Source of the DNA: Alteromonadaceae bacterium UBA2620
GTDB taxonomy: Bacteria > Pseudomonadota > Gammaproteobacteria > Enterobacterales > Alteromonadaceae
Assembly: GCA_002339125.1 (NCBI GenBank)
Contig: DDJQ01000105.1
Location: forward strand, 127-64,126
DNA: 64,000 nt
Direction: 5' to 3'
Part shown: positions 6,479 through 29,416 of the stretch, one piece after another
Numbering within the stretch: the stretch's first letter is position 1
Layout of the letters: each line of letters begins with the position of its first letter
The notes under the pieces: generated by a model
Databases searched by the model: none
Seen by the model: the letters and a program-made list of their open reading frames with translations, nothing else
What the model was told of the DNA's origin: nothing
Translations under genes and position numbers: made by a program

Positions 6479-7882
6479 CTAACCCGCCGAATCCCAACTC
6501 ACCTTCTTTCTGTATATTGTTGAAGGGCTGACATCCAGCAGTTCAGCCGCTTTAGGAATGTTGCCATTGCAATATGCAATAGCAGACTCGATGGCTTCTC
6601 GCTCGGTCACCGCAAGTGGCTGAATTTTCACTTCTGAGCTGGCAAATACCTGTGGTGTCGGAGGTTCTGCCGCCGGCGAGGTTGCCTTCTGACTAACAGC
6701 GATATTGTTTAAGGGGTGAGGGAGATGCTGGCTTTCAACCATTTTTGCATTATGCAATACCACAATATTCTGAATCACATTTTGCAGTTGCCTTACATTG
6801 CCAGGCCAGTCGTAATCGAGAAACAGCTGTTTAACCTCCTCGCTGAGGCCGACAAACTCTTTATTTTCCTCAGTAGCAAATTGCTTAAGAAAGTATTCTG
6901 CGATGGCCAGTGTATCCTCGCCACGCTCTGCCAGTCGGGGCAGATGGATGGGAATAACCTGTAACCGGTAGTACAGATCTTCGCGAAAACGTCCGGCTTT
7001 AACTTCTTCCAGCGGATTTTTATTGGTGGCACACACAAAACGAATATCAACGCTGATTTCTTTGTCACTGCCCACCGGTTGAAACTTCCCGGTTTGCAAA
7101 AAGCGCAGTAGCTTGGTTTGCAGATCCATGTCCATCTCGGCAATTTCATCGAGGAACAGGGTGCCACCATCCGCCTGGGTAGCCACGCCATCCCGTGCTT
7201 TCTGAGCACCGGTAAACGCCCCTTTAATATGACCAAATATCTCGCTTTCCATTAACTCCCGGGGAATAGCGCCACAGTTAAGTGCGATAAACAGGCCTGG
7301 CTGACGCGGGCTTTGATCGTGGATAGCACGAGCACAAACCTCTTTACCGGTACCACTTTCACCGGTAATAAACACCGTCGCCCGGCTTGGTGCTGCGGCT
7401 TCGATTATTTTATAAATAGCCTGCATAGGCAGGCTGCTGCCAATAAAGCCCTGGTATTCAGAACGGGAAAAGGTATTTTGCAACGTTTGTAGCTGCTGAC
7501 TGAGGGCAATTTGTTTTAGCGCATTTTTTACTGTGGTAATCAAACGTTTACCGTCAAACGGCTTTTCAATAAAGTCCAGCGCGCCCAGGCGCATAACTTC
7601 TACCACAGTATCAATTGCATTTTGCGAAGTGATGATCACCACTTCAATATGTGGGTATTCGCTTTTTATCCATTCCAGTAAATCCATCCCTTTGATATCG
7701 GGGAGTCCCAAATCCAGCAACACCAGGCTCGGCTCATGATTGGCCACTAAATACTTGGTCTCCGCCCCATTGCCTGCAGTCAGTATTTCCACTTTCTCGT
7801 TGCGCAGATACTGCTGATAAAGCGTATTCAGCGACGTGGAATCTTCCACAATCAGCACTTTCTTCACTGACATACTCGCCAT
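6479..7882 (-). CDS. Sigma-54-dependent response regulator (NtrC family, LuxO/SypG-like bEBP)
   Basis: REC domain, then an AAA+ domain with GESGTGKE and GAFTGA, then a C-terminal Fis-type HTH (ELLDVSPSTIYRK). A GGAGGG RBS precedes the ATG. Confidence 0.9.
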   Translation of the reverse strand: MASMSVKKVLIVEDSTSLNTLYQQYLRNEKVEILTAGNGAETKYLVANHEPSLVLLDLGLPDIKGMDLLEWIKSEYPHIEVVIITSQNAIDTVVEVMRLGALDFIEKPFDGKRLITTVKNALKQIALSQQLQTLQNTFSRSEYQGFIGSSLPMQAIYKIIEAAAPSRATVFITGESGTGKEVCARAIHDQSPRQPGLFIALNCGAIPRELMESEIFGHIKGAFTGAQKARDGVATQADGGTLFLDEIAEMDMDLQTKLLRFLQTGKFQPVGSDKEISVDIRFVCATNKNPLEEVKAGRFREDLYYRLQVIPIHLPRLAERGEDTLAIAEYFLKQFATEENKEFVGLSEEVKQLFLDYDWPGNVRQLQNVIQNIVVLHNAKMVESQHLPHPLNNIAVSQKATSPAAEPPTPQVFASSEVKIQPLAVTEREAIESAIAYCNGNIPKAAELLDVSPSTIYRKKVSWDSAG

Positions 7883-8081: not shown

Positions 8082-8096
8082 TGGCACCCTACTTGC
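8082..8096 (+). promoter_or_regulatory. Sigma-54 promoter TGGCAC-CCTAC-TTGC(T)
   Basis: Exact -24 GG / -12 GC spacing, 47 bp before the ATG at 8143. Confidence 0.7.
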
Positions 8097-8142: not shown

Positions 8143-9381
8143 ATGACACCCCAGTCACCTCACTCAGAAGCATTTGCCAGTGAAACCGCCGAACGGTGCG
8201 GAAATGTGCTGTTAGTCGATGACAATGCGGCCGACCGGATGCTGTTAAAAGCCATGCTCGAACAGCTTGGCTACCATATCTGGGAGGCCGAAGAACTGCT
8301 CACCCGCAAGCATTTTGATATGGTGCTGAGCGACTGGATGATGCCAGAAATGTCCGGTCTGGAACTGTGCGAACGTATCTCCCGGCGATTTGAAAATAAG
8401 CCTTACATTATCCTTATCACCGGGCGCAACGAGTCCAACGACCTGATCCACGGTATTGAATCCGGTGCTGATGACTTTCTCACCAAACCCTTTAACCGCG
8501 ATGAACTGCGGGTTCGGTTGCAGGCAGGCTCCCGGGTCGCCAGACTGCAACGTAAACTACTTGAGCAAAACCTGATCCTTGTTCGTCACCTGCACAAGCA
8601 AAATAAACTGGTTCAGCAAAACAAACAGGAATTAACACTTGCGGCCAGGGTACTGATGGCCAGTTTGCCGCAAGCTGTGAATGTTTACCGTAATTCGGTG
8701 GAGGTTTACGGCAGGCTGAAACCGGCTAATACACTGGGCGGTGACGTGCTGAATCACTTTATGCTGGACGAACATCATCTGGCGTTTTACCTGATTGATG
8801 TCGTCGGGCACGGCGTCTCAGCGGCACTCAATGCGTTTTTGCTATCGAAAACCCTTATCGTCGACGACGAAAAACAGTCTATTTTGTACAAGGATCAGCA
8901 ATTACGCTCACCAGGCGAGGTAGCGGCGGCGCTGAACGCGCAGTTTTTCGACCCGCAATCCACTTCTCAGTATTTCACCATGGTGTACGGAGTACTAAAT
9001 GTGGAATCGGGAGAAGGCCGGTTCTGTCAGGCAGGTAGTCCGTCGCCAATCATTTGCAGCCCTAATGGTGAGTGCGAAAATGCTGGTAATGGCGGCTTTC
9101 CGGTGGGGTTAATTGATAGCGCCACCTTCGATGAGTACTCGTTCAGGTTACAGCCGGGGCAACGTCTGTTTATTTTTTCCGATGGTTTTGTGGAGCTCGA
9201 TCCGCACAACTGCCCCGGCCAGCAGCATCGCTTCAACGAACTGCTTGGCACCACTGCTAAACAACCGCTGGCTGAGGCCATTTCTACCTGCTACGAACAA
9301 ACTGCTCAATGGATAGAACAAAGCGATCAGCTCGATGATATGTCGATGCTAGCCATTCAGATGCGGGAGGCTTCAGAGTGA
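8143..9381 (+). CDS. Response regulator receiver + PP2C (SpoIIE/RsbU-type) serine phosphatase
   Basis: N-terminal REC domain (VLLVDDNAADR..SDWMMPEMSG..TKP). The C-terminal PP2C features include GGDV..., YLIDVVGHGVSAAL, FSDGF and DDMSMLA. Confidence 0.85.
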   Translation: MTPQSPHSEAFASETAERCGNVLLVDDNAADRMLLKAMLEQLGYHIWEAEELLTRKHFDMVLSDWMMPEMSGLELCERISRRFENKPYIILITGRNESNDLIHGIESGADDFLTKPFNRDELRVRLQAGSRVARLQRKLLEQNLILVRHLHKQNKLVQQNKQELTLAARVLMASLPQAVNVYRNSVEVYGRLKPANTLGGDVLNHFMLDEHHLAFYLIDVVGHGVSAALNAFLLSKTLIVDDEKQSILYKDQQLRSPGEVAAALNAQFFDPQSTSQYFTMVYGVLNVESGEGRFCQAGSPSPIICSPNGECENAGNGGFPVGLIDSATFDEYSFRLQPGQRLFIFSDGFVELDPHNCPGQQHRFNELLGTTAKQPLAEAISTCYEQTAQWIEQSDQLDDMSMLAIQMREASE

Positions 9382-14662: not shown

Positions 14663-14677
14663 TGGCACTGTGTTTGC
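14663..14677 (+). promoter_or_regulatory. Sigma-54 promoter TGGCAC-TGTGT-TTGC(T)
   Basis: Exact -24/-12 spacing, 23 bp after the wzz stop and 97 bp before the flippase ATG. Confidence 0.65.
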
Positions 14678-14773: not shown

Positions 14774-16099
14774 ATGCAAATGCTCCCCATGCTGAAAGTG
14801 CTGTTTACCCGCTCCGTTGGCCTTGGCTTACAGCTGCTGCTAACGCTGGTAATGGGTCGCTACCTTGGTGCCGCCGGGGTAGGGCAATTTACCCTGTACA
14901 ATACCTGGATGGTCACCCTGGGCTGTGTGGGCGATATGGGCCTGCCAACAGTGGCCCTGCGGAATGTGTCGGTAAGCGAAGAGCGCAGACAGTACAAGCA
15001 AATATTTGCCTATATTACCCAGGCACTCGCCAGACTGCTTATTTACGGCGCTCTGGCCGCTGTAGTACTTATTACGGCTGCCGATTACTTTGCCCATTTA
15101 GCCACTGCTGATGCTACGCTGCTGTCGCTTTTTCAACTGGCGGTTGGCGCAGCGGTTGTCTTCATCCTGATGCGGGTGTTGTCTGAAACCTTGAAAGGGC
15201 TGGGCTACATCAACCTCGCCTTTACCATCGACACCTCACTGCTGCCACTGCTGTTACTGCTGGTAATGGGCGTAAGCTGGCTATTTGATTCGTCGCTTTC
15301 GGTGTTTCAACTGATCGCTTCACACATTACCTTTACGGTGCTGATAGTCGTCCTGCTGGCCACCGTTTTCTTTGTTATTCTGCGCCGAGCACTGGCAGCC
15401 TCCCCCACGACGTTGCCAACCAGTTCATCGCCTCATCAGCCAGACAGTTTGTTTTCACGACGTCTGGTACCGGTCTGGATTGGTGGTTGTTTGGGGATGT
15501 TAAGTCTGAACCTGCCAGTGCTGTTTTTACCGCTGTATGCCGACGCCGAGGAAATCGGCATTTTTGGCGTCAGTTACCGACTGATGCTTGCCGGGACATC
15601 GGTACTCACAACCCTCGCATCCTATTACGGCCCTGTATTTGCCAGAGCTTATGCCAATCAGGATTGTGCCCGGTTAAAGCAAAGTCTCAAGCATTCACAA
15701 AAAGTCTCGTTACTGGTTTACCTGCCGTTTTTCCTGCTTTTTACATTGTTCTCTGAGCCACTGCTGGCGTTATTTGGCGATGAATTTACCGCCGGCGCCT
15801 CGCTGTTAACCATCATGGTGTTTGGCCAGCTGATTAATACATCCACCGGACTGGTAGGCATCATGCTAAATATGATCCATCGCGAGAAAGAAGAATTTAT
15901 TATTCAGCTCAGTAACCTGGTGATTACCGTGGTGCTGATTAATGTCCTCGGCACCCTGTACGGCGTGGCCGGCATTGCCGCCGCCTGTGCAATCAGCATT
16001 GGTCTGAAAAACGTGATGTCGTATATCGCGGCCCAGCACTATCTGAGCCTGTCTGACTACCCTTTACCTGTGAAGGAAGCTAACCATGAAACCGCTTGA
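14774..16099 (+). CDS. Polysaccharide flippase (Wzx/MOP superfamily)
   Basis: Multi-pass membrane protein of 441 aa with Wzx-like topology, positioned inside the EPS cluster. Confidence 0.8.
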   Translation: MQMLPMLKVLFTRSVGLGLQLLLTLVMGRYLGAAGVGQFTLYNTWMVTLGCVGDMGLPTVALRNVSVSEERRQYKQIFAYITQALARLLIYGALAAVVLITAADYFAHLATADATLLSLFQLAVGAAVVFILMRVLSETLKGLGYINLAFTIDTSLLPLLLLLVMGVSWLFDSSLSVFQLIASHITFTVLIVVLLATVFFVILRRALAASPTTLPTSSSPHQPDSLFSRRLVPVWIGGCLGMLSLNLPVLFLPLYADAEEIGIFGVSYRLMLAGTSVLTTLASYYGPVFARAYANQDCARLKQSLKHSQKVSLLVYLPFFLLFTLFSEPLLALFGDEFTAGASLLTIMVFGQLINTSTGLVGIMLNMIHREKEEFIIQLSNLVITVVLINVLGTLYGVAGIAAACAISIGLKNVMSYIAAQHYLSLSDYPLPVKEANHETA

Positions 16100-17012
16100 T
16101 TTCCTGATTATCGGCGCGCAAAAATCCGGTACCACCTCGTTGTTTAAATACCTTAATCAGCACCCGGATATTGCCATGCCGGCGGATAAAGAAGCGCCCT
16201 ATTTTACTAATGACGAGCTCTACAGCGCTGGCTGGCAACATTACCTGGGCAACTATTTTACCGGCTATGACCAAGAGCTGCTCTGGGGTACAGCCAGCCC
16301 TCAATACATGAGTGACCTGCGCGCAGCAGAGCGCATAACCCGGGACCTGCCGAACACCCGGCTGATTGCCATTTTACGCAACCCTATTGAGCGCGCTTAT
16401 TCACACTATTTAATGCAAAAAAGGCGAGGCCTGGAAGAGCGCTCCTTCGACTCAGCGCTCGACACGCTGTTGCTTCAGCAAAGCCTGAATCATGCCCGCG
16501 CCAACCAGCCGGTGTTTAATGCCACCATGAACTATGAGGATGAATCCGGACATTACCTTGTGCTTGGCGAATACGGTCGAATCCTTAAAGCCTACCGCCA
16601 TTACTTTGAGCGCGGGCAAATGCTGGTGATATTTATGGATGAACTCACCGGTCAGCCCCATCAAACCGTCGCCAGAGTGCTGGAATTTATTGGCGCCAAC
16701 GATGAAAGCCTGCCGGATAATGTTGGTAAGGTTTACCACCAGGGTGGCAGTAAGCAGTTTATTCCTAACGCCTGGCGCAATGTGCTGAAAACTAATAGTG
16801 CTTTCCGGGCAGTCTGGGATTGCGTTCCCGAACGCACTAAAAGCAGTATCCGCTACTGGTACGATCAAAAAAACGTCCGCAAAGCCAGTGGGCAGGAAGG
16901 CCCGTCAGAAATCGCTAAGCAACGGCTGGCAGACTTCTATCGCAATGATATGGTTCAACTGCAAAGTCTGACTAATCAGGCCGTGCCCTGGAGCGAATTT
17001 AGCGGCGGATAA
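16086..17012 (+). CDS. PAPS-dependent sulfotransferase family protein
   Basis: A 5'-PSB loop (IIGAQKSGTTSL) and a 3'-PB motif (RLIAILRNPIERAYSHY). Confidence 0.8.
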   Translation: MKPLDFLIIGAQKSGTTSLFKYLNQHPDIAMPADKEAPYFTNDELYSAGWQHYLGNYFTGYDQELLWGTASPQYMSDLRAAERITRDLPNTRLIAILRNPIERAYSHYLMQKRRGLEERSFDSALDTLLLQQSLNHARANQPVFNATMNYEDESGHYLVLGEYGRILKAYRHYFERGQMLVIFMDELTGQPHQTVARVLEFIGANDESLPDNVGKVYHQGGSKQFIPNAWRNVLKTNSAFRAVWDCVPERTKSSIRYWYDQKNVRKASGQEGPSEIAKQRLADFYRNDMVQLQSLTNQAVPWSEFSGG

Positions 17013-19334: not shown

Positions 19335-20532
19335 GTTCCCTCCCGACGCACAGGTTGATTTCACTGACCATGTCTCCGAGCACCTTATTCCAGGTATAGT
19401 GCTGGGCTACAAGGCTACGGGAGCATTGCTCCATGCGTTCCCAGACCGCTCGATCGCGCAACACCACATCCATGTACGCCACCATCTTCATCGCACAGTC
19501 GGTGACTGCAAGATGTTCAAGATTGGTGTAATCGATGCCCTCTGCACCAACCGGCGTGGTAACCACCGGCAGACCCCGGCTCATGGCGTTAAGCACTTTC
19601 ACTTTAATCCCGGAGCCGAAGCGCAGTGGCGAAACAAACACTCTGGCCCGTTTAAAGTAATCCTCCAGATCCTCAACAAAACCAGTCAGTTCTACGCCAT
19701 CCAGGTTGTCCACCAGCGCCACCAGGCGATCATCGGGATTGGCACCGACAATATAAAAATGCAGATCCGGATGGATGCTCTTTATTACGGGCCAGGCTTC
19801 CTGCAGAAACCAGATAAGACCGTCGACGTTGGCTTCCCAGTTGAGCGTTCCCACATAAAGCAGCGCTTTATCAGAGGTTTCGAATTGCAATGCAGGTAAG
19901 CTTAGCTGTGAGTCATCGCCTAAGTGGTAAGTAACCCGGCATTTGTCTTTCACAGCGCCGATCTTTACCAGACTATCGATATCATTCGGCGCGGCAAACA
20001 CCAGGCTGGCCTGACTCGTGGTTTGCTGCTCGTAGTGCCTGACACGTCTGGCTTCAATCGCCGAGGCTACGCGATGCAACAGGTTAGAGCAGGATTTGGC
20101 AAAGCGCTCCCACATCAGATAAGTGGCATTATGGGTATGAAAGATCACCCGGCCCTGGTAGTTGGCCGGCACATACTGATACGCCTCGTAATGGTCGAGC
20201 AGAATAATGTCGTAGTGATGAGCAATGCGGGCTATCTTTTCCGCGAGCTTTTCAGAGCGCGAGCGATACACATTAATCGGGATCCCTTGCATATAGCTTT
20301 TCAGCAGAACCCCCAGCGAACGCGGGCGCTGCACCTCATCGGTCAAAAATGTACCTAATGGTACCTGCTGCTGAAACTCACTGACTTTGTCGGTGCCGTA
20401 CTTAAGCGGGCAGGCCAGACCCACATCAAAATGGCGACACAGAAACTTCAGCATGTTCCAGCTTTTCATTCTGCCGCCACTGGTGGGTGGGTAAGGTAAT
20501 TCAATGGAAATCATCAGTAGCGAGCTTTTCAT
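19321..20532 (-). CDS. GT-B glycosyltransferase (family 4/1)
   Basis: N-terminal PYPPTSGG and the C-terminal FVSPLRFGSGIKVKVLNAMSRGLPVVTT (E-x7-E region type). Confidence 0.85.
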   Translation of the reverse strand: MKSSLLMISIELPYPPTSGGRMKSWNMLKFLCRHFDVGLACPLKYGTDKVSEFQQQVPLGTFLTDEVQRPRSLGVLLKSYMQGIPINVYRSRSEKLAEKIARIAHHYDIILLDHYEAYQYVPANYQGRVIFHTHNATYLMWERFAKSCSNLLHRVASAIEARRVRHYEQQTTSQASLVFAAPNDIDSLVKIGAVKDKCRVTYHLGDDSQLSLPALQFETSDKALLYVGTLNWEANVDGLIWFLQEAWPVIKSIHPDLHFYIVGANPDDRLVALVDNLDGVELTGFVEDLEDYFKRARVFVSPLRFGSGIKVKVLNAMSRGLPVVTTPVGAEGIDYTNLEHLAVTDCAMKMVAYMDVVLRDRAVWERMEQCSRSLVAQHYTWNKVLGDMVSEINLCVGREHETV

Positions 20533-21416
20533 GCGACCTCCGATGACCGTTGAGCAATTTTAGCTATCCAGCGCTGATACTGCTCCGGACTGAAACCCAG
20601 GTTAGACTGCACGTGCACAGCCACATGCTCGTTGCCCAGATGATTGAGATAGTCCTGAACATCACCAGGAGACTGGATGTCATAAAACCACGAGCTATGA
20701 GTGAGCTGCTGAAAATCCTGCCAGTGGCCTCTGCCTTGCTGTACATGCTCGACAAAAGCGCCGTACAAAATAAATTCGGAGAGATCGAGCTCGCGGGCCA
20801 ACACCCGGTGCCAGGGGCGCCAGAAAGTGCAGGTGAGATGCTCCAGCAACGCCAGGCAGGTATCCCGCCGAAATGCATTCAACTGTGCAATATAGCCGTG
20901 TTTGATTGTTTGCTGACTATCGATACCAAACAGTCTGGCGGCCAGAGAATACCAGTTGAGATAGCGCCGATCATTTCGTAACACCGGGCCACGCGGCTTA
21001 ACCGATGTCCGCAGGTTATCCCCCCGCCATAACTGATTAAGACTAAACGGCCGAATAAACTCAACGTCGGAGTCGGCAAACACAATGGCATCGCACTGTA
21101 CTTTTTCAGCAATCGCAAATTTGCACAATTGTTGAAAAATCCAACCGCGCACCGGCAGCACTTTTTCCCCCCACCACCACTTGCGTAGCAGCGGCAGGTT
21201 AAAGTTGCGGTAAGGAAGAAGAGACTCCTTGGTTACCAACACGACTTTCTCGCTGGCCAGGTGTTCAAACAACGACCATTCTTTTTCGTCGATGATCAGA
21301 TAGTGTTTTTCATATCCGGATAAAAAAGCCTGTGCTGTGGCCACCAGCCTCTCACAACGCTGTAAGTCGTCTTTAAAGGTCGGTGTGACCAGAATATTGC
21401 GTTTTGGCATATTCAC
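20529..21416 (-). CDS. Hypothetical protein, possibly a GT-A-like transferase (DSD motif)
   Basis: First gene of the minus-strand glycosyltransferase operon. It contains IVFADSDVEF (DxD-like). There is no confident family match by eye. Confidence 0.45.
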   Translation of the reverse strand: MNMPKRNILVTPTFKDDLQRCERLVATAQAFLSGYEKHYLIIDEKEWSLFEHLASEKVVLVTKESLLPYRNFNLPLLRKWWWGEKVLPVRGWIFQQLCKFAIAEKVQCDAIVFADSDVEFIRPFSLNQLWRGDNLRTSVKPRGPVLRNDRRYLNWYSLAARLFGIDSQQTIKHGYIAQLNAFRRDTCLALLEHLTCTFWRPWHRVLARELDLSEFILYGAFVEHVQQGRGHWQDFQQLTHSSWFYDIQSPGDVQDYLNHLGNEHVAVHVQSNLGFSPEQYQRWIAKIAQRSSEVA

Positions 21417-21461: not shown

Positions 21462-21476
21462 GCAACCAACATGCCA
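21462..21476 (-). promoter_or_regulatory. Sigma-54 promoter (minus strand) TGGCAT-GTTGG-TTGC(T)
   Basis: The reverse complement of GCAACCAACATGCCA has exact spacing. It lies 46 bp upstream of the ATG at 21416. Confidence 0.65.
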
Positions 21477-21583: not shown

Positions 21584-21698
21584 TGCCCTGACCACCTCCG
21601 CACTGGCGCAGTTATTGAATACCACACCAGCATGACTCGCACCGGCATAACCGGTGTTGCTGATCAGCGTTTATCGTTCACCATCGCGGAGACAAGTT

Positions 21699-22274
21699 AT
21701 GACTGAGAGTTTTGCACGCATACTCTGGCTTACCGGCTATGTGCTGTTAATCGGCCCGCCTCGCATTTTTGCTATCAGAGCCAAAGCCCACCGGGCAGGC
21801 AGTGAGTTGTCTAACTTACCCTTTGCCGTTCTTACAGGGATTGAAGTGATGGTGAGAGGCGGCCTGCTGCTATTATTAATGGTGGCTGTAGAAGGGTTGC
21901 TGGGTAAGGCACTCTATGAATATTTGCTGCTAGATTACTTTTTTCTCGCCCTGGTTTTCACCGGTGGCATGCACTTACTCATCTATCTCTATTGCTTTTC
22001 ATCCCGTGGGAACAGGCCGCCCCCTATGCGCACTTATCGAATAGGCAGAAACGCTTGTTATGCCGTGGCACCGGCGCTGGCGGCGAGCTTTATTGGCTTA
22101 CTCTGGCAGCACTACCATCAGCAGCCCCTACTCGGCGGTAATCTAATCCCTACGCTCTTTGCGTTATGCTGGACAGCCGGATTGATTGCCGGTTGCATCG
22201 AAGCATTGATAATAAGGCGTAAGCCCAAAGGCCTCGATGCCGTTCTGTCAGCCAGGATCTCACCAGAGCAATAA
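21699..22274 (+). CDS. Hypothetical multi-pass membrane protein
   Basis: Four or five hydrophobic helices. The ATG at 21699 is preferred over the GTG at 21654. No known motif. Confidence 0.45.
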   Translation: MTESFARILWLTGYVLLIGPPRIFAIRAKAHRAGSELSNLPFAVLTGIEVMVRGGLLLLLMVAVEGLLGKALYEYLLLDYFFLALVFTGGMHLLIYLYCFSSRGNRPPPMRTYRIGRNACYAVAPALAASFIGLLWQHYHQQPLLGGNLIPTLFALCWTAGLIAGCIEALIIRRKPKGLDAVLSARISPEQ

Positions 22275-22402: not shown

Positions 22403-22438
22403 TCTTATGTGGTTAATCCCTTTTTATCGAGAATAACC

Positions 22439-23203
22439 ATGTCACAGCAATGCCACACTAAAGAAAGCCATGAGCATCATCAGCGGCTTGCTGAAAAAAA
22501 GTTCATTGAGCAATACAAAGCTCACCACAGCTTTTTGCGTCGCACTGTTAAACACCTGCGTATTCATTACAAGCGTGCCATCTGGCGTATTGTTATTCAG
22601 TCATCCCGGCTGGTTAAACGCTGCCTGGATATCAGTTTGAGCCTGATAGCTATTTTGCTGCTACTGCCGGTATATATAATAACCGCGCTGGCGATTCAGT
22701 TGGATGCACCCGGCCCGGTTATCTTTAAACAGCAACGGGCTGGCCGCTTTGGCAAGGCTTTCACCATGTACAAATTCCGCTCGATGGTGGTCACGGCAGA
22801 GCACGACAAGCAAGCTTTGCTGGCCAGTAATGAGTCGGCTGCCGGGGTGATTTTTAAAATGAAACAGGACCCCAGAATCACCCGGGTAGGGCGCTTTATC
22901 AGAAAGTACTCCATCGATGAACTGCCTCAACTATTTAATGTTTTGCTCGGTGACATGTCGCTGGTCGGCCCACGGCCGCCCACGCTCAATGAAGTTGCTC
23001 AATACAGCCTGTCTGATCGTAAACGCCTGTATGTAGCCCCCGGTATCACCTGTATCTGGCAGGTGAGCGGGCGCTCTGAGATCGACTTTGCCGGGCAGGT
23101 AAAACTGGATGTGGCTTATATTCAAAGCCAGAGCTTATGGACAGATATCAGCATTTTACTAAAAACCATCCCGGCCGTACTGCTGGGTAAAGGAGCCTAC
23201 TGA
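22439..23203 (+). CDS. Polyprenyl-phosphate sugar phosphotransferase (bacterial sugar transferase, priming enzyme, SypR/WbaP C-terminal type)
   Basis: KR.LD + TM helix, GPVIFKQQR.G, KFRSM, DELPQLFNVLLGDMSLVGPRPP and PGITCIWQVSGRS. The ATG at 22439 is chosen because the promoter at 22388 would place the transcription start after the GTG at 22409. Confidence 0.85.
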   Translation: MSQQCHTKESHEHHQRLAEKKFIEQYKAHHSFLRRTVKHLRIHYKRAIWRIVIQSSRLVKRCLDISLSLIAILLLLPVYIITALAIQLDAPGPVIFKQQRAGRFGKAFTMYKFRSMVVTAEHDKQALLASNESAAGVIFKMKQDPRITRVGRFIRKYSIDELPQLFNVLLGDMSLVGPRPPTLNEVAQYSLSDRKRLYVAPGITCIWQVSGRSEIDFAGQVKLDVAYIQSQSLWTDISILLKTIPAVLLGKGAY

Positions 23204-24657
23204 TGTCAGCTAATTTTGTGCCTGTTTCCCACGCGGTACTCATTGAACCGCCCCTCGCTGCGCAGTTGCAGCCCTTGTTGGTAAGGCGTTCACTGGCAAT
23301 GCTTCCGGTTGCTGGTAAACCGATTATCCAGCTTTGGCTGGAGCATATAAACCTGATGGGCTTTACCTCGGTAAGCATTGGTGTACGCGACTTTCCACAG
23401 GCACTACGCAACCTGGTAGGCGACGGCTCACGCTGGGGGCTATCAATACAGGTTCATGCTCTCACCGATGCCATGACCTCAGAGGACGCCGTGCGGCACA
23501 TCGGGATGAATGGCCCGCAACTGGTAGCCAGCTTAAATGCTATTCCAACTCAGAATCTGTCATTTTTGCTGAGCCGGCTGACTCACCAAGACCCGGCAGA
23601 GCATGCGTCACTGAATAACGAGACCGCTGAACAACCACTGGTGTACCTGAGCAAAGATACTTCGGGTGAGTCGACTGTCGCAACCAGTAACAGTGCAGCA
23701 AGATTGCCATTGGCCAATCACCTGTTTCTTACCATAGACAGTGTGAAATCACTCTGGACAGTGAATGAGGCCCTGCTCAAACGCGAGATTTTTGATCCTC
23801 TGCATGCAGGGTTTGAGGTAGACCCGGGGATCTTTATGGAAACCGGTGTTCAGGTTAAGCCGGGGGTGAATATTCAGGGGCCGGTCAAGGTTGGTCAAAA
23901 CAGTTACATCGGCAAAAACGTTAAAATCAGAAAAAATGTCGTCATCGGCGCCGGTGTAATCATTGAAAGCGGCTGTGAACTGGAAAACACGGTTCTGCTG
24001 GATAATACCCATGTGGGTGCTGAGTCCAACCTGAGTAACGTGATCATCGATGGCGCATCGGTGTATTCACTGCAAGGCGATACCTTTACCTGGATTAACG
24101 ATCCCTCCATCCTCGGCTGGACCAATGCCGCAGAGGCAAGGGTATCACCACTGGAACGCCTGACAGCAGTATGCCTGCTAGTGGCTTTTATGCCGGCTCT
24201 GTTGGCTTTCGCCCTGCTGCAATGGGCTCGCCGCCGGCCGGTTTATCACAGCCACGATGGCTACGTGCCTGATGGCGTAAGCATCACCGGCCAGCAAAAA
24301 CACCAAAACCTTAAACTTAAAACCTTAACCAGTCTTAACGACCGGTTTAACAAACTGCCATGGCTGACTGAAGTCATTAAAGGCAATCTGCATCTGGTCG
24401 GAATCGGCCTGCCGTCGTCTTCGAACAGTACTTTTCCTGAGTGGGCCTACGAGTTACAAAACCGCCGCCCGGGGGTAATTAATCTGCACGACAGCCACCG
24501 CACCGCGTTAGCCGCAGAAACCAATTATGTTGAAGACCTTTATTATCTGAATCATCGCAATCGCCCGCGCAATCTGCTCATTCTGGTGCGTTGGGTATTT
24601 CAGCTTTGCACCGCAAGATTCAGTATTTCTAACCGCAAACATGAGGCAAGACTATGA
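23203..24657 (+). CDS. Three-domain protein: nucleotidyltransferase-like N-terminus (degenerate), left-handed beta-helix hexapeptide repeats, degenerate sugar-transferase-like C-terminus
   Basis: The N-terminus has MLPVAGKPIIQ but lacks the GxGTRL loop. The middle has hexapeptide repeats (VGQNSYIGKNVKIRKNVVIGAGVIIESGCELENTVL). The C-terminus has a TM helix, then LKLKTL, NKLPWLTEVIKGNLHLVGIGLP and PGVINLHDS in place of the KFRTM, DELPQL..G.MSLVGPRP and PGITG motifs. An ATGA overlap links it to the upstream transferase. Confidence 0.7.
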   Translation: MSANFVPVSHAVLIEPPLAAQLQPLLVRRSLAMLPVAGKPIIQLWLEHINLMGFTSVSIGVRDFPQALRNLVGDGSRWGLSIQVHALTDAMTSEDAVRHIGMNGPQLVASLNAIPTQNLSFLLSRLTHQDPAEHASLNNETAEQPLVYLSKDTSGESTVATSNSAARLPLANHLFLTIDSVKSLWTVNEALLKREIFDPLHAGFEVDPGIFMETGVQVKPGVNIQGPVKVGQNSYIGKNVKIRKNVVIGAGVIIESGCELENTVLLDNTHVGAESNLSNVIIDGASVYSLQGDTFTWINDPSILGWTNAAEARVSPLERLTAVCLLVAFMPALLAFALLQWARRRPVYHSHDGYVPDGVSITGQQKHQNLKLKTLTSLNDRFNKLPWLTEVIKGNLHLVGIGLPSSSNSTFPEWAYELQNRRPGVINLHDSHRTALAAETNYVEDLYYLNHRNRPRNLLILVRWVFQLCTARFSISNRKHEARL

Positions 24658-24989
24658 ATATTTCAGAAGTCGTCATTGAAGATACCGTGGTATTACGCTT
24701 AACCGGCAAGCTCGACGGCAGCGCCGTGGAACAATTATCGAATCAGGTGAAAGACGCCATCTGGTCGCGTCACAGCGCCGTTTTGATCAATATGCAGGGG
24801 GTTGAGTTTGTAGACTCCACCGGGCTTGGCCTGCTGGTGTTCTTATTCCGTCAGGCTAAGGAACAAAATACCGACTTCGCAATTTGTGCGCTATCGGCAC
24901 AGGCCCAGATGGTGTTTGAGATTACCCGTATGACCAAAATTTTTGTTGTCCACCCCAGTGAATCCGCTGCGTTGGCAGTATCGGCTTAA
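24654..24989 (+). CDS. STAS-domain anti-sigma-factor-antagonist-like protein (SypA/SpoIIAA-like)
   Basis: 111 aa. The motif VEFVDSTGLGLLV places the conserved phosphorylatable Ser at residue 55. ATGA overlap with the upstream gene. Confidence 0.85.
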   Translation: MNISEVVIEDTVVLRLTGKLDGSAVEQLSNQVKDAIWSRHSAVLINMQGVEFVDSTGLGLLVFLFRQAKEQNTDFAICALSAQAQMVFEITRMTKIFVVHPSESAALAVSA

Positions 24990-25022: not shown

Positions 25023-26618
25023 ATGACCAGCAAAGCCCTACTTACTCCTACCGTAATTAAGGACAACTACACGCCCATCCTTGGTATCCCCATCGATAAT
25101 CTGGATCTTGAGGAAACCACAGATGCCATTTTTGCCCTGTTGCAACAATATCCCCTGACTCAACGAGCGGGTTTTGTTGCCACCGTGAATGTCGATTTCC
25201 TGGTTAATGCCCATGCCTGGCTACCAGGGCAGTTACCCCGGCACCCGGAACTGCTCGATATTTTACGCAACGCCGACATCGTTACTGCCGATGGCATGCC
25301 GCTAGTGTGGCTTAGCCGGCTGCTGGGTAAATCTCTTAAACAGCGGGTCACCGGAGCTGACCTGGTGCCGGCACTGTGTAAGCGCGCGGCCAAAGAAAAC
25401 GCCTCTGTGTATTTACTGGGCGGGCGCGAGGAAATTGCGATCCAGGCTGCACAGAAGCTTCAGACCCAAAATCCCGGCCTTAACATAGCTGGCGTCAGCT
25501 CTCCCTTTGTGACCACAGAAGGCATTAATATCGACGATGAAGCCCAGGACCAGCTGGTTGTTGATGCGATTAACCAGGCAAAGCCCGACATTCTGTTTAT
25601 TGGCTTTGGCAATCCAAAACAGGAAATCTGGTTTCAGCGCAATAAACATAAGCTTCAGGTGCCGGTGTCTCTGGGAGTAGGCGGTACATTTGAATTTATC
25701 GTTGGCTCGGTGAGTCGGGCGCCGGTCTGGATGCAGCGCAGCGGTCTGGAATGGTTTTACCGTATAACGCAGGATCCTAAACGGCTCATCGGGCGTTATC
25801 TTACCGGCATTGCGAAACTCGGTGTAATGGCCGTGCCCATGCTGCTAAACAGCCGTATTGTTTTGCGCCAGGCACCGGGCAAGGATAATACCATTGCCGC
25901 TACGCAGGATAGCGATCACCCTATTGCCTATCCGGATATCTGCGCACTGAGTGCAGACCATTACAACCTTATTTGCTTACCGCAACACATTGATCGCTCC
26001 TGGGTACAGCGCAACGCTATTTTTATAGCCCAGATGCTCGACCAACAGCGTCCTCTGTTACTGGATTTCGCAGACGTCGAATACTTTGAACCCTGCACAG
26101 AGCACCTGTTCCTGCAGATGTTTCGCCACACCACTAATAACCATCAGCAAGTCTATATTGCCGGACTTAACCACCCACAACTTATCAGGCAGCTTAAGTC
26201 TTTCCGGGTTTATGACATGTTCCGTTTCAAGGTGTTTTCCTCTTTCGAGAAAATCCTGTTTTTGCTGGGTGATGAACAGGAAACCAGCTCTGTGCAATAC
26301 CAGAGTCGTGGCGGTATTTTCCATATTACCTTAACCGGAAGTGTGGAGGCGGATAGCGGTAATCTGCTGGACATTGAGACAATCACTAACACCGCTAAGG
26401 GAAGACCTTTATTGGTAAACTTCTCCAGAGTCAGCGCTATCGACAACCGCGGCCTGGCACTACTGGCCAAACTCAATAAACTGTGTGGTGATAAGCACCA
26501 ACAAATGCTGTTATTGGGCGTTAATGCCGGTATTCAACAGCGCTTCCAGGCGGCCGGCTTATTAAACGCCTTTAGCTTTGCCGAAACCCACGAGCAGGCT
26601 ATGTATTTACTGCGCTAA
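25023..26618 (+). CDS. WecB/TagA/CpsF-family (GT26) glycosyltransferase fused to two C-terminal STAS-like domains
   Basis: The GT26 core covers about aa 1-275 (VATVNVDF, TADGMPLVW, FGNPKQE.W, GVGGTFEF..G...RAP.WMQ..GLEW.YR). The C-terminal part contains LLVNFSRVSAIDNRGLALLAKLNKL...LLGVNAGIQQRF.AAGL, which is STAS-like with Asn in place of the phospho-Ser. Confidence 0.8.
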   Translation: MTSKALLTPTVIKDNYTPILGIPIDNLDLEETTDAIFALLQQYPLTQRAGFVATVNVDFLVNAHAWLPGQLPRHPELLDILRNADIVTADGMPLVWLSRLLGKSLKQRVTGADLVPALCKRAAKENASVYLLGGREEIAIQAAQKLQTQNPGLNIAGVSSPFVTTEGINIDDEAQDQLVVDAINQAKPDILFIGFGNPKQEIWFQRNKHKLQVPVSLGVGGTFEFIVGSVSRAPVWMQRSGLEWFYRITQDPKRLIGRYLTGIAKLGVMAVPMLLNSRIVLRQAPGKDNTIAATQDSDHPIAYPDICALSADHYNLICLPQHIDRSWVQRNAIFIAQMLDQQRPLLLDFADVEYFEPCTEHLFLQMFRHTTNNHQQVYIAGLNHPQLIRQLKSFRVYDMFRFKVFSSFEKILFLLGDEQETSSVQYQSRGGIFHITLTGSVEADSGNLLDIETITNTAKGRPLLVNFSRVSAIDNRGLALLAKLNKLCGDKHQQMLLLGVNAGIQQRFQAAGLLNAFSFAETHEQAMYLLR

Positions 26619-26638: not shown

Positions 26639-29416
26639 TTAGCGCACCGGGGTAGCCTGTTCCGCACAATCCACCGCAGACTCATTCATTTCATCAAGCA
26701 CCTGCTGCGTTACCCGCAAGGAATCTTCGGTAATTCCCTCAAACAAGCCGACCAGAAAGGCAACTTCATCAGCCTTACCGGTAGCACATAAACTCTCAAT
26801 CGCTTTGGAGACTTCGTGCAGGCGCATATTGGCATGCGAGGCTGAAGAGCTCTTAATACTGTGCGCAGCAAATTCAATTTTTTCCAGATCACCCTGCTCA
26901 TTAGCCGCCAAAATCGTGTCGGCAATTTTGCGGGTTTCGCTGAGATACACTTCCAGTAATCTTGGCACAACTTCACGACTGGTATCGTAAATCAGTCGGT
27001 TGAGTACTTCATGGTCAAACAGCTTGTAACAATCAAACTCTTTACTCTCAACTACCGGTGTAACAACCGGACGTTCCACATTTAAACTACTTTGTGGTGA
27101 CATTTCAGCGGTCTCTTCCTGGTTAATGGGTACGCCAAGGCACCACTTGTTTATTTTTTCGAACAGGCATTTTTTAGTACAGGGTTTGCTCAGGTGATCG
27201 CGCATTCCTGATGCCAGAAAACGATTAATCTCGTTTTCCATGGAATGCGCAGTGAGCGCAACAATGGGGGTTTCGGCATTTAAGCCGCCAGCGCCGATAA
27301 TTTGCTGAGTCGCCGCAATACCATCCATTTCGGGCATCGAAATATCCATCAGAATGACATCAAACTGTTGCTCCTGACAAAGGTCACAGGCCTGCTTGCC
27401 ATTTTCGGCAAACACCAGTTGGATATCTTCTCTGATAAGCTGATTTTCTGCGATCAACCGGTTCGACTCGTTGTCTTCTGCCACCAGAACGCGACAGCCT
27501 TTAGGTAAGTGTAAATTGTCGTGTTTACTGACAGTGCGTAATGCGGCAATTTCGTCATCAGAGCAGTAGTTCAGCCGAATACTAAAGGAGAATTGCGCGC
27601 CTCCGCCGGAGCGATTGTTGCGGGCCGTAATGTGCCCTGACATTTTCTTAACCAGATTTTTGCAAATACTCAGACCTAATCCAGCCCCCGACCGCTGCCT
27701 GGAGGACGAATTGTCAGCCATGCTGAACTCGTCAAATAGTTGATCCTTAAAGGACTCGTCTATACCAATACCGCTATCGGTAACATCGCAAAGCAATTCA
27801 AAGGTTTCGTTATTGTGAGAAACCGCCGACAGCGAAATAGCAATACTGCCTTTATCGGTAAATTTAATCGCATTGTCTATCAGGTTGATAAGGATCTGAC
27901 GGATGCGCGTAAAGTCTCCGCAGATGTGCGCCGGCAACGCTGGTGAAACCTGGAACTGCAACGCAAGATTTTTCTCACTCGCTGCGGTTTGCATGATTCC
28001 GCGGGTACTGTCGATTAAGGATGCAGTACAAAACGGCTTTGGTGAAATCGTAAAGGTTCCGGCATTCATTCTGGACAAGTCCAGAATGCTGTTAATAATT
28101 TCCATTAACTGCGTGCCCGATGACATAGCCAGATGAATCAGCTTAAGTTGCTCCGGGTGAACATTATCTTCTTCCAGTAACTCAAGGATCCCCAGAACCG
28201 CATTCATCGGGGTACGAATTTCGTGACTCATAGTGGCCAGAAAACGCCCTTTGGCCTCACTGGCCTGCTCAGCCAGCACTCTGGCCTCTTTTAACTTGTT
28301 CACGTATTCCCTGCGCTCGCTGATGTCATTGAGCTCACAAACGTAAAGGTTTTCTTTTGCCTGTTCGCCTTTAATAACCGACGCATGGGCGTGGGCAGGA
28401 AAGTGACTATCATCGGCTTTAACAATGGTAACTTCTTTTGCCCAGTCACCCTTTGCATCCAGCGCATTCCACATCTGTTCCCTCACAGACTTGTCTTCAT
28501 CGTAGAACAGCCGCGTTGCCTTGAAGTTTTCCGGTAAGCCCTCATCAAAGCCCAGCGTAGATAAAAAAGCAGCATTAGCCTTAACGATTTTGGCTTCATG
28601 ATCGGCCACAAACATAGGAATATTAATGTTAAACACGCAACTGGCCAGCAGCGAGTCCATTTGCAAGCGCTTTTGTTCGGTGATGTCTCGGATAAACGCC
28701 GCAAAAAACACATCATTACCATTTTCTACCGTACAAATCGCTATTTCTATATTAAATTCATGGCCCTGCTTATGCAGGGCTACCAGCTCAATGCGCCGGT
28801 TAAGCAATTTGCTTTCTTTATTTTTATCAAACCGCCCCATGGCCGAATTGTGCATATGCCGGTAACGTTCAGGAATAATGGTGTCGCTAAGCTGTTTGCC
28901 GAGAATCTCTGCTTTCTGCCAGCCAAAAATTGCCTCGGCGTGAGTGTTAAAATCAATAATCTCACCGTCACTATTAGCGGTAACAATGGCATCGAGTGAT
29001 GAGTTCAGCAGCGCCCTGGACTTGGCTTCGCTGGAGGTATTGATCTCCAGAAGCTGCTTGTTTTGCTGACGGTTATACTCAGAAGTTTCACGACTCTCGC
29101 GTAATTGGTTTAGCACATCGTTATAACGCTCAACCAACAGGTCAGTGCGGGCATCGCCCACTTTGCTCAGCGGATGCAATCCCTCGATTCCGACACCAGA
29201 GAACTGTTCGTTAATTTTCTGCAGAGGCGAAAAACGGAGATAGCGGTAAACAAAAAATAAGGCCAAATTCATGGCCGCAGCAATCAAGCCCATTAACAAT
29301 AACCCGGTAAAATCCGTAGTTCCTCCTGTCATGGGTACAATCCAGGCCAGTAACGCCATGAAAACAACCAGGTTGAACAAAAATAGCGGGACTTTTATTT
29401 TGAATAAAGAAGACAC
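26639..29416 (-). CDS. Hybrid sensor histidine kinase (2 TM, PAS x2, HisKA, HATPase_c, REC, Hpt; SypF-like)
   Basis: H-box SHEIRTPMN, G-boxes DSGIGI and GAGLGLSI, REC domain VLVAEDNESNR..DVILMDISMPEMDG, and a C-terminal Hpt domain HSIKSSSASH. Confidence 0.9.
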   Translation of the reverse strand: MSSLFKIKVPLFLFNLVVFMALLAWIVPMTGGTTDFTGLLLMGLIAAAMNLALFFVYRYLRFSPLQKINEQFSGVGIEGLHPLSKVGDARTDLLVERYNDVLNQLRESRETSEYNRQQNKQLLEINTSSEAKSRALLNSSLDAIVTANSDGEIIDFNTHAEAIFGWQKAEILGKQLSDTIIPERYRHMHNSAMGRFDKNKESKLLNRRIELVALHKQGHEFNIEIAICTVENGNDVFFAAFIRDITEQKRLQMDSLLASCVFNINIPMFVADHEAKIVKANAAFLSTLGFDEGLPENFKATRLFYDEDKSVREQMWNALDAKGDWAKEVTIVKADDSHFPAHAHASVIKGEQAKENLYVCELNDISERREYVNKLKEARVLAEQASEAKGRFLATMSHEIRTPMNAVLGILELLEEDNVHPEQLKLIHLAMSSGTQLMEIINSILDLSRMNAGTFTISPKPFCTASLIDSTRGIMQTAASEKNLALQFQVSPALPAHICGDFTRIRQILINLIDNAIKFTDKGSIAISLSAVSHNNETFELLCDVTDSGIGIDESFKDQLFDEFSMADNSSSRQRSGAGLGLSICKNLVKKMSGHITARNNRSGGGAQFSFSIRLNYCSDDEIAALRTVSKHDNLHLPKGCRVLVAEDNESNRLIAENQLIREDIQLVFAENGKQACDLCQEQQFDVILMDISMPEMDGIAATQQIIGAGGLNAETPIVALTAHSMENEINRFLASGMRDHLSKPCTKKCLFEKINKWCLGVPINQEETAEMSPQSSLNVERPVVTPVVESKEFDCYKLFDHEVLNRLIYDTSREVVPRLLEVYLSETRKIADTILAANEQGDLEKIEFAAHSIKSSSASHANMRLHEVSKAIESLCATGKADEVAFLVGLFEGITEDSLRVTQQVLDEMNESAVDCAEQATPVR

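Follow-up and report, generated by a model that had tools for sequence, protein, structure and literature searches.

Analysis of a 64,000-nucleotide stretch of DNA from Alteromonadaceae bacterium UBA2620 (contig DDJQ01000105.1; the whole stretch is called the window below) has revealed a gene for a 484-residue protein, located between the gene of an intact small monotopic phosphoglycosyl transferase (PGT) and that of a single-domain STAS protein. The protein comprises a nucleotidyltransferase-like (NT-like) domain, a left-handed beta-helix (LbH) and a PGT-like domain, and, as judged by the alignments, it appears to be a double pseudoenzyme from which both catalytic signatures have been lost. 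All three domains are under purifying selection, and the protein is functional rather than decaying. We surmise, with a probability of about 0.55, that it acts as a non-catalytic adaptor or regulator coupling a partner-switching signal to the initiation of polysaccharide synthesis. An earlier note on this DNA had suggested a regulatory or scaffolding subunit of the initiation step, and this idea seems to gain indirect support from catalytic motifs that are dead throughout the family, from purifying selection and from a conserved gene order.

Domain architecture and loss of catalytic residues

The open reading frame (ORF) was found exactly as the earlier note had given it, and the motifs quoted there, from the 484-residue product as well as from the upstream product, were all recovered in the translations. 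For the domain analysis, a family profile was made from an alignment of 77 sequences (the A2 alignment); the same alignment was fed to AlphaFold and yielded a model with pLDDT 90.4 and pTM 0.87, superseding an unusable one (pLDDT 37) from a shallow 5-sequence alignment. Pfam, the family profile and this model support the three enzyme-like parts described earlier (Table 1); on the single sequence, only the beta-helix passes its curated Pfam threshold, and no NCBIfam model reaches its cut-off on the protein. Residue counts refer to the 146 full-length three-domain proteins, aligned with MAFFT, among the best 150 cluster representatives of the 2802 proteins that an exhaustive profile search retrieved at E<=1e-3.

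Within the NT-like domain, residues 11-83 match the nucleotidyltransferase MurU (4y7t) at E 3e-7, while Pfam NTP_transferase gave no match at E<=1 in the window protein and NCBIfam rmlA_long scored 43.6 bits vs. a cut-off of 320. When the family profile was used, residues 1-289 matched structures of the NT plus LbH type, the best being 8x7s at E 2e-50, followed by Leishmania GDP-mannose pyrophosphorylase, eIF2B epsilon and GMPPB, with GMPPA lower (E 8e-17). The region ahead of the beta-helix is 195 residues long (family median 193.5), which makes the domain about 40 residues short vs. the 245 positions of the Pfam model and the approximately 233 residues of P0049, an intact member of the family; two variable, low-confidence loops (residues 129-146 and 151-166) lie where the sugar-binding lobe is expected. 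The earlier note had claimed that MLPVAGKPIIQ (residues 33-43) is kept and that the GxGTRL pyrophosphorylase loop is replaced by IEPPLAAQLQPL (residues 14-25), and both points held, the second by alignment to 4y7t, in which EPPLAAQ stands opposite AAGKGER of LAAGKGERMRPL and SLA opposite PKP, so that GxGTR reads PPLAAQ. The second glycine, the threonine and the arginine of GxGTR, together with the lysine of the P-K that follows, are unconserved columns in the family alignment, and GxG[TS]R is kept in only two of the 146 representatives (P0049 and P0056).

The middle part, read in the earlier note as a hexapeptide-repeat beta-helix, is indeed one, scoring 45.5 bits with Hexapep (cut-off 27), matching LbH_EIF2B at E 6e-10 and forming short beta-strands at residues 204-306 of the model with a pLDDT of about 98. 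Its best Pfam matches are the non-catalytic types LbH_EIF2B and GMPPB_C. The (near-)invariant columns of the LbH region in the 77-sequence alignment are glycines only, with no invariant histidine, aspartate or glutamate; acetyltransferase activity of the kind found in the GlmU C-terminal domain, LpxA or PglD was ruled out, as no catalytic residue is conserved. Foldseek neighbours of the model were tlr0611 (an NT plus LbH protein deposited as a UDP-glucose pyrophosphorylase), VTC1 in the VTC1-KJC2 complex, GMPPB and GMPPA in their complex, and eIF2B epsilon/gamma. Together with the LbH_EIF2B match, these neighbours bear out the likeness to the eIF2B gamma/epsilon and GlmU architecture proposed earlier.

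As for the C-terminal domain, Bac_transf reached 20.8 bits on the window protein (cut-off 27), covering residues 381-467 and thus only the second half of the domain, and it matched 67 of the 77 relatives at E<=0.01. The family profile aligned residues of about 315-478 to positions 8-187 of the 205 in PglC (structures 8e37/8g1n) at E 1e-22, a C-terminal-only profile did so at E 3e-22, and hhalign of the family against the neighbouring small PGT gave a probability of 97.4. Because BLASTP of the 484-residue protein against this neighbour was not significant (E 0.085), profile methods were needed to recognize their homology. The earlier note had described a transmembrane (TM) helix followed by a sugar-transferase-like C-terminus; the transferase fold stands, whereas the TM helix proved to be the re-entrant helix-break-helix of monotopic PGTs. 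Its proline, Pro331, is kept in 120 of the 146 representatives, and in the model this element is predicted to give monotopic membrane anchoring.

The small PGT of the window is intact in KFRSM, DELPQ, PRPP and PGITCIWQ. In the 484-residue protein, LKLKTL (residues 370-375), NKLPWLTEVIKGNLHLVGIGLP (residues 383-404) and PGVINLHD (residues 423-430) occupy the places of KFRSM, DELPQLFNVLLGDMSLVGPRPP and PGITCIWQ of its upstream paralogue. At the position of the catalytic Asp-Glu dyad, hhalign set FNKLPWL of the pseudoenzyme against IDELPQL of the window PGT, and in the HMMER alignment the family consensus 'rk' fell on the D-E of SLSLDELPQLF in PglC. None of the 146 representatives has D-E at this position, the commonest pairs being R-K (24), R-R (13), R-V (10) and S-R (9). 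Replacement further extends to the lysine and arginine of KFRSM and to the WQ of PGITxxWQ, and the clade of the window protein is without the PR(P) arginine too (LVGIGLP), a residue kept by 72 of the 146 representatives and by most of the more distant members. The best-conserved part of this pseudo-PGT domain is made up of the LPxLxxVxxGxLxLVG and PG motifs, with Pro386, Gly394, Gly400 and Gly424 nearly invariant across the family. The claim that every catalytic block of the upstream paralogue has been replaced is thus upheld by profile alignments (hhalign and HMMER) and not by eye alone; profile searches with inspection of the alignments, as the earlier note had advised, found the catalytic residues of both domains not to be conserved. 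As the protein scores below the curated cut-offs of the two enzyme families and lacks their defining catalytic features, we have filed it in neither.

The ratio of nonsynonymous to synonymous substitution rates (dN/dS) in the NT-like, LbH and pseudo-PGT domains, respectively, was 0.26, 0.08 and 0.16 vs. a metagenomic relative of 92% identity (L023), 0.27, 0.08 and 0.31 vs. a relative of 86% identity (L022), and 0.11, 0.04 and 0.12 vs. Alteromonas lipolytica (L001), for which dS is saturated. For the whole gene, the ratio was 0.10-0.23, and the beta-helix is the most constrained part (0.04-0.08).

The family and its gene context

Word-indexed homologue searches yielded only 4 close relatives and their profile versions added little; one of the close relatives is an A. 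lipolytica 'NDP-sugar synthase' with 67% identity. Among the best 150 representatives from the exhaustive search, almost all are 410-560 residues long and aligned over roughly residues 10-470. Members come from sources such as Alteromonas, Mariprofundaceae and the planctomycete Candidatus Uabimicrobium amorphum, with architecture and synteny retained across phyla at 21-38% identity. Their public names are 'NDP-sugar synthase', 'pyrophosphorylase family' and 'nucleotidyltransferase' only, and labels of the synthase or nucleotidyltransferase type are very probably wrong for nearly all members examined. The two representatives with GxG[TS]R, P0049 (517 residues; L020:3340-4893) and P0056 (781 residues, with an additional N-terminal GT2 domain), match NTP_transferase over the whole Pfam model at E 4e-56 and 6e-55. 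An Acidobacteria variant (Candidatus Acidoferrum, L006:7174-9157, the same as L028) has the NT-like domain and the beta-helix, with no pseudo-PGT domain.

To describe the gene context, we relied on 16 loci, a limit set by the locus search, in which one restrictive peptide pattern taken from the close-clade alignment gave 13 genomic and 13 metagenomic loci, of which about half were N-terminal matches of no relevance, and hence few relevant loci. The 16 are the window, L001, L003, L004, L005, L006/L028, L015, L016, L018, L019, L020, L024 (with its close relatives L022 and L023), L025, L026, L027 and one contig from JGI. An intact small PGT was encoded upstream of the family gene in 16 of the 16 loci having upstream sequence; the two genes either overlap by 1 nt or stand 1 to about 50 nt apart, in most cases overlapping or being separated by no more than about 25-50 nt, and in L018 a gene for a degenerate PGT domain fused to WecG intervenes. 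These small PGTs group tightly, sharing their motifs and the C-terminus ...IPAVLLGKGAY; we also observed this tail, up to the stop codon, across phyla in the window, L001, L015, L018, L019 and L020.

On the other side, a STAS protein is encoded directly downstream in 11 loci, being 107-115 residues long in the window, L001, L004, L015, L018, L019, L020, L021, L024 and the JGI contig, and represented by a longer STAS-like ORF in L006. The window STAS protein carries VDSTGLG, with the phosphorylatable DSTGLG motif, and (F/I)DS(S/T)GLG was found in 7 of the 9 aligned STAS proteins, those of L021 and L006 being divergent. The order of small PGT, family gene and STAS gene is kept from Gammaproteobacteria to Planctomycetota.

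The earlier note read ATGA overlaps on both sides of the pseudoenzyme gene. This was correct for the junction with the STAS gene (ATGA, 4 nt, 24654-24657), whereas the junction with the small PGT gene is TGATG with an overlap of 1 nt, the TGA ending and the ATG beginning at 23203. A GAGG Shine-Dalgarno sequence of the STAS gene lies at 24643-24646, 7 nt before its start. The AAGGAG of the pseudoenzyme gene sits within the codons for the conserved PGT C-terminus (...GKGAY*, window 23186-23203). From these junctions, the pseudoenzyme gene is predicted to be translationally coupled between the genes of an active small PGT and a phosphorylatable STAS protein.

Genes for partner switching were also found in these loci, comprising a fusion of a response regulator (RR) with SpoIIE, HATPase_c_2 and STAS in L016, an HNOBA-SpoIIE-HATPase_c_2 protein in L018, stand-alone HATPase_c_2 kinases in L020 and the JGI contig, and the RR-PP2C gene in the window. 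A WecG-family protein with two STAS domains is encoded in L020 as well as in the window, and the WecG homologue of L004 ends in at least one STAS-like stretch. In three other loci (L015:4800-6239, L018:6643-8004 and L019:5828-7093), WecG bears an N-terminal degenerate PGT (Bac_transf-like) domain that has Y-R or H-R as its dyad and YQFRIF or YKFKLP in place of KFRSM; this makes two kinds of pseudo-PGT fusion within one module. In two distant loci, the module is followed, a few kilobases downstream, by an exosortase (EpsH) gene (L016:13661-14476 and L018:14650-16464), which suggests a link to exopolysaccharide systems of the PEP-CTERM/exosortase type.

Proposed role and competing explanations

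We propose that the re-entrant helix of the dead PGT fold would hold the double pseudoenzyme at the cytoplasmic face of the membrane and that the pseudo-PGT domain would place it in the plane of the membrane next to the small PGT and probably also next to the WecG transferase. The beta-helix would oligomerise the assembly, as in eIF2B and the GMPPA/GMPPB complex, with the NT-like and beta-helix head offering a docking surface for the STAS protein. The phosphorylation state of the latter would be governed by the locus-encoded RR-PP2C phosphatase together with a kinase encoded elsewhere, and would switch the activity of the PGT on or off post-transcriptionally, and hence the commitment of undecaprenyl phosphate (Und-P) to this exopolysaccharide. 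Fusions among these parts (STAS with WecG, degenerate PGT with WecG, the NT-like/LbH head with pseudo-PGT and, in cyanobacteria, STAS with active PGT) suggest that they work together physically.

A number of points weigh against this adaptor role. No tblastn match to an RsbW-type serine kinase (HATPase_c_2) was found within the 64-kb window. Small PGTs such as PglC are not known to pair via their catalytic fold. WbaP dimerises through its domain of unknown function (DUF) and not through its PGT domain (PMC10942596). As known PGT pairing is not via the catalytic fold, docking of a pseudo-PGT onto a PGT is without precedent. The Acidobacteria variant still lies between a small PGT gene and a STAS-like ORF, and the pseudo-PGT domain is thus not essential to the module. 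The nucleotidyltransferase domains of P0049 and P0056 are apparently intact, which suggests that the family may have begun as a membrane-tethered active enzyme. The list of the best 150 representatives is biased towards relatives of the query, and more distant members could differ. Finally, the conserved basic residues at the dyad could indicate binding of a ligand rather than docking of a protein.

This last point leads to the main rival, in which the pseudo-PGT pocket binds Und-P or a sugar linked to undecaprenyl diphosphate (Und-PP-sugar) and hands the product of the small PGT to the WecG-family transferase; the polyprenyl-phosphate pocket would be kept, with arginine or lysine in place of the metal-binding Asp-Glu, and the NT-like and beta-helix head would be only an oligomerisation scaffold. 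The dyad is indeed not random, being mostly R-K, R-R or S-R, conservation is highest in those motifs that surround the active site of real PGTs, the PR(P) arginine persists in most of the more distant members as noted above, and the degenerate PGT-WecG fusions of L015, L018 and L019 fit a carrier module on an enzyme that uses Und-PP-sugar. However, the clade of the window protein has lost that arginine, and carrier binding leaves both the constant STAS neighbour and the L006 variant unexplained, so that we regard it as rather unlikely. It is also conceivable that the protein is a membrane-tethered enzyme for supply of nucleotide sugars, i.e. a nucleotidyltransferase anchored by the dead PGT fold, with the window protein still binding or making nucleotide sugar. 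P0049 and P0056, which occur in the same gene context, would agree with this, as would the NTP_transferase matches of 56 of the 77 members at E<=0.01; in the window protein, however, the Gly-rich loop, its arginine and the PK lysine are all replaced, the shortened domain has variable loops at the sugar-binding lobe and goes unrecognised by Pfam NTP_transferase, and the signature is absent from 144 of the 146 representatives. For P0049 and P0056, and perhaps for the ancestor, an active pyrophosphorylase in tethered form is plausible; for the window protein, we consider it improbable.

More remote still is an active enzyme with unconventional catalytic residues, such as a PGT-like transferase with another nucleophile. 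Strong conservation of the motifs framing the pocket, along with purifying selection, might be expected of such an enzyme, but all the residue classes known to be required have been replaced together (the Asp-Glu dyad, the KFRSM lysine and arginine, and the WQ of PGITxxWQ), and the neighbouring gene invariably encodes an intact canonical PGT. That the protein is the decaying remnant of a fused enzyme and now lacks any function, as the absence of catalytic motifs from two domains might imply, is hardly credible, since such pseudogene decay is contradicted by dN/dS of 0.04-0.31 in every domain, an intact reading frame, architecture and synteny maintained across phyla, and a confident AlphaFold model.

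Going beyond the adaptor role in this one locus, we tentatively entertain the broader idea that the dead PGT fold is a reusable docking module in a phospho-regulated, multi-polypeptide initiation complex, which would be the missing output of STAS partner switching. Here, the dead PGT may bear an NT-like/beta-helix head that receives the phospho-STAS signal and, in sister loci, WecG; these pieces, together with the small PGT and the multi-pass membrane protein encoded upstream, may form a complex comparable to a large PGT, serving the STAS systems of many phyla that act on exopolysaccharides post-transcriptionally.

Undecaprenyl phosphate is scarce and becomes committed at the first membrane step in the assembly of polysaccharides, the gating of which is only now being worked out, with EpsW-EpsZ (2025), the WbaP DUF (2024) and cyanobacterial STAS-PGT fusions (2026) as precedents. 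If our proposal is correct, a pseudoenzyme adaptor dedicated to connecting a small PGT with a partner-switching signal would be a third gating route, in a family found well outside cyanobacteria, and would provide a concrete target for STAS proteins lacking a known output, e.g. Vibrio SypA. In our literature search, which did not cover a 2021 PNAS sequence-network paper on monotopic PGT fusions, there was no description of a pseudo-PGT or of the three-domain family, and a 2024 PNAS survey of monotopic PGTs made no mention of fusions, inactive members or STAS; the present protein would be the first pseudo-PGT described. It would extend two known kinds, namely pseudoenzyme regulators and partner-switching control of polysaccharide enzymes, while the finding corrects a widespread annotation and points to an unexpected component at a committed step of bacterial glycoconjugate assembly.

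Neighbouring genes and known systems compared

Table 1. Features of the pseudoenzyme gene and of its surroundings in the window
Feature	Position	Strand	Evidence or remarks
Sigma-54-dependent response regulator, candidate activator of the locus	6479-7882	-	Response_reg, Sigma54_activat, HTH_8
RR-PP2C (SpoIIE) fusion, candidate STAS phosphatase	8143-9381	+	Response_reg, SpoIIE
Sulfotransferase gene inside the polysaccharide cluster	16086-17012	+	Syntenic in A. lipolytica
DUF6492 protein within the glycosyltransferase block	20529-21416	-	Conserved in A. lipolytica and L023
Multi-pass membrane protein of no known family, first of the same-strand run	21654-22274	+	No Pfam/NCBIfam match
Small intact monotopic PGT	22409-23203	+	Bac_transf E 3e-68; EPS_sugtrans 302.7 bits, above cut-off
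AAGGAG Shine-Dalgarno sequence of the pseudoenzyme gene	23190-23195	+	Read from the sequence; 7 nt before ATG 23203
Gene of the 484-residue three-domain putative pseudoenzyme (NT-like, LbH, pseudo-PGT)	23203-24657	+	ORF, family search, AlphaFold model
NT-like Rossmann domain, shortened, apparently catalytically dead, residues 1-195	23203-23787	+	4y7t match; family profile vs. 8x7s
EPPLAAQ, residues 15-21, where the A-G-G-x-G-T-R pyrophosphorylase loop belongs	23245-23265	+	Alignment to 4y7t
LbH of eIF2B-epsilon/GMPPB type, residues 196-310	23788-24132	+	Hexapep, LbH_EIF2B, dN/dS
Pseudo-PGT domain, full PglC-like fold, residues 311-484	24133-24654	+	PglC profile match, hhalign
Re-entrant helix-break-helix, residues 316-342	24148-24228	+	Model helices 316-328 and 330-342, Pro331; aligned to the PglC N-terminal helix
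Asn383-Lys384 codons at the position of the catalytic Asp-Glu dyad of monotopic PGTs	24349-24354	+	Alignment to window PGT and PglC
Single-domain STAS protein, anti-sigma-antagonist type	24654-24989	+	STAS E 9e-18; ant_ant_sig 76.5 bits, above cut-off
WecG/TagA/CpsF-family glycosyltransferase with two C-terminal STAS domains	25023-26618	+	Glyco_tran_WecG E 3e-64
PAS-containing hybrid histidine kinase with receiver and Hpt, candidate upstream sensor	26639-29416	-	Syntenic in A. lipolytica and L023

The window locus is a Wzx/Wzy-type exopolysaccharide cluster comprising genes for Wza-like, Wzz, Wzx, sulfotransferase, Wzy, GT2, GT1 and DUF6492 proteins, to which are added the sigma-54 activator, an RR-GGDEF protein and the hybrid kinase, with full synteny in A. 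lipolytica. Since the sulfotransferase gene lies inside the cluster, the product may be a sulfated exopolysaccharide. The start of the small PGT is ambiguous (GTG 22409 or ATG 22439); the ATG is the probable start, as gene calls in close relatives are 254 residues long. Downstream, the WecG-STAS fusion is likely the second-step enzyme; its counterpart in the TARA contig L023 was called as two genes (243 and 266 residues), possibly owing to a frameshift or an assembly error. Genes for homologues of the multi-pass membrane protein (about 190-206 residues) directly precede the PGT gene in the gammaproteobacterial loci L001, L004, L005, L024, L026 and L027, and the combination of this protein with a Rossmann-like domain and a small PGT recalls the domain set of large PGTs (a bundle of four TM helices, a DUF and the catalytic domain). 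Perfect sigma-54 promoter consensus sequences (TGGCAC-N5-TTGC) were observed at 8082-8096 (+), just upstream of the RR-PP2C gene, and at 14663-14677 (+), just upstream of the Wzx gene, vs. an estimated 0.1 perfect matches expected by chance in 64 kb; weaker matches with 1 and 2 mismatches, at 21462-21476 (-) and 21604-21618 (+), flank the divergent region before the pseudoenzyme operon. These putative promoters fit the sigma-54 activator encoded in the locus.

Among known systems, GMPPA, KONJAC, eIF2B gamma/epsilon and GlgD are catalytically inactive paralogues that serve as regulatory or scaffolding subunits of complexes. GMPPA (with GMPPB), plant KONJAC (with VTC1), eIF2B gamma/epsilon and GlgD have an NT fold followed by a beta-helix, as does the 484-residue protein, and the eIF2B, GMPPA/GMPPB and VTC1-KJC2 complexes are among its best structural and profile matches; this architecture combined with lost catalytic residues is common to all of them. 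Unlike GMPPA, KONJAC and eIF2B, its head is fused to a membrane-embedded pseudo-PGT, and its presumed catalytic partner is a PGT and not a nucleotidyltransferase. GMPPA keeps the Gly-rich loop and binds GDP-mannose, whereas the 484-residue protein has lost this loop. With PglC-type small PGTs, the pseudo-PGT shares homology over the whole domain, including the proline of the re-entrant helix and the LPxLxxVxxGxxxLVG and PG motifs, but its dyad is Asn-Lys (Arg-Lys in the family consensus), KFRSM and WQ are lost and it falls below the Pfam cut-off.

A parallel in signalling is found in cyanobacteria. All4160 of Anabaena is a STAS-Bac_transf fusion in which phosphorylation of STAS, via the HenR phosphatase and the Alr3423 kinase, switches the enzyme; Synechocystis XssP, another STAS-fused PGT, belongs to the sulfated-exopolysaccharide (synechan) pathway, and such fusions were reported by the authors as largely cyanobacterial and rare elsewhere (PMC13555669). 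In these proteins as in the window module, STAS is associated with the sugar transferase that initiates an exopolysaccharide pathway, with a SpoIIE-type phosphatase and a serine kinase setting the switch of All4160/XssP (PMC13555669), and the window locus likewise has a sulfotransferase. STAS is fused to an active PGT in All4160/XssP, whereas STAS, intact PGT and pseudo-PGT are encoded by separate genes in the window, with the pseudoenzyme gene between the other two; the separate-gene arrangement occurs in Proteobacteria and Planctomycetota, and in Acidobacteria as the variant without pseudo-PGT, as opposed to the cyanobacterial All4160/XssP type.

A similar regulatory set is present in the syp locus of Vibrio fischeri (SypA as the STAS protein, SypE, SypF and SypG), where SypA controls a biofilm polysaccharide by a mechanism reported as unknown (PMC4517449). 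The counterparts in the window are the single-domain STAS protein, the RR-PP2C protein, which is without the N-terminal kinase domain of SypE, the hybrid kinase with Hpt, the sigma-54 activator and promoters of sigma-54 type. Post-translational control of a PGT via an attached nucleotide-binding domain or a phospho-dependent partner is exemplified by WbaP, with its nucleotide-sensing regulatory DUF (2024; PMC10942596), and by Myxococcus, in which phosphorylated EpsW activates the PGT EpsZ (2025; PMC12802240). Large PGTs of the WbaP type and the window module both have a multi-pass membrane part, a Rossmann-like domain and a PGT catalytic domain, but in the window these are separate polypeptides and the Rossmann-like domain is of the NTP_transferase fold family and not PF13727. 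As to the signalling input, it would be STAS partner switching in the window module vs. a response regulator in the EpsW-EpsZ type.

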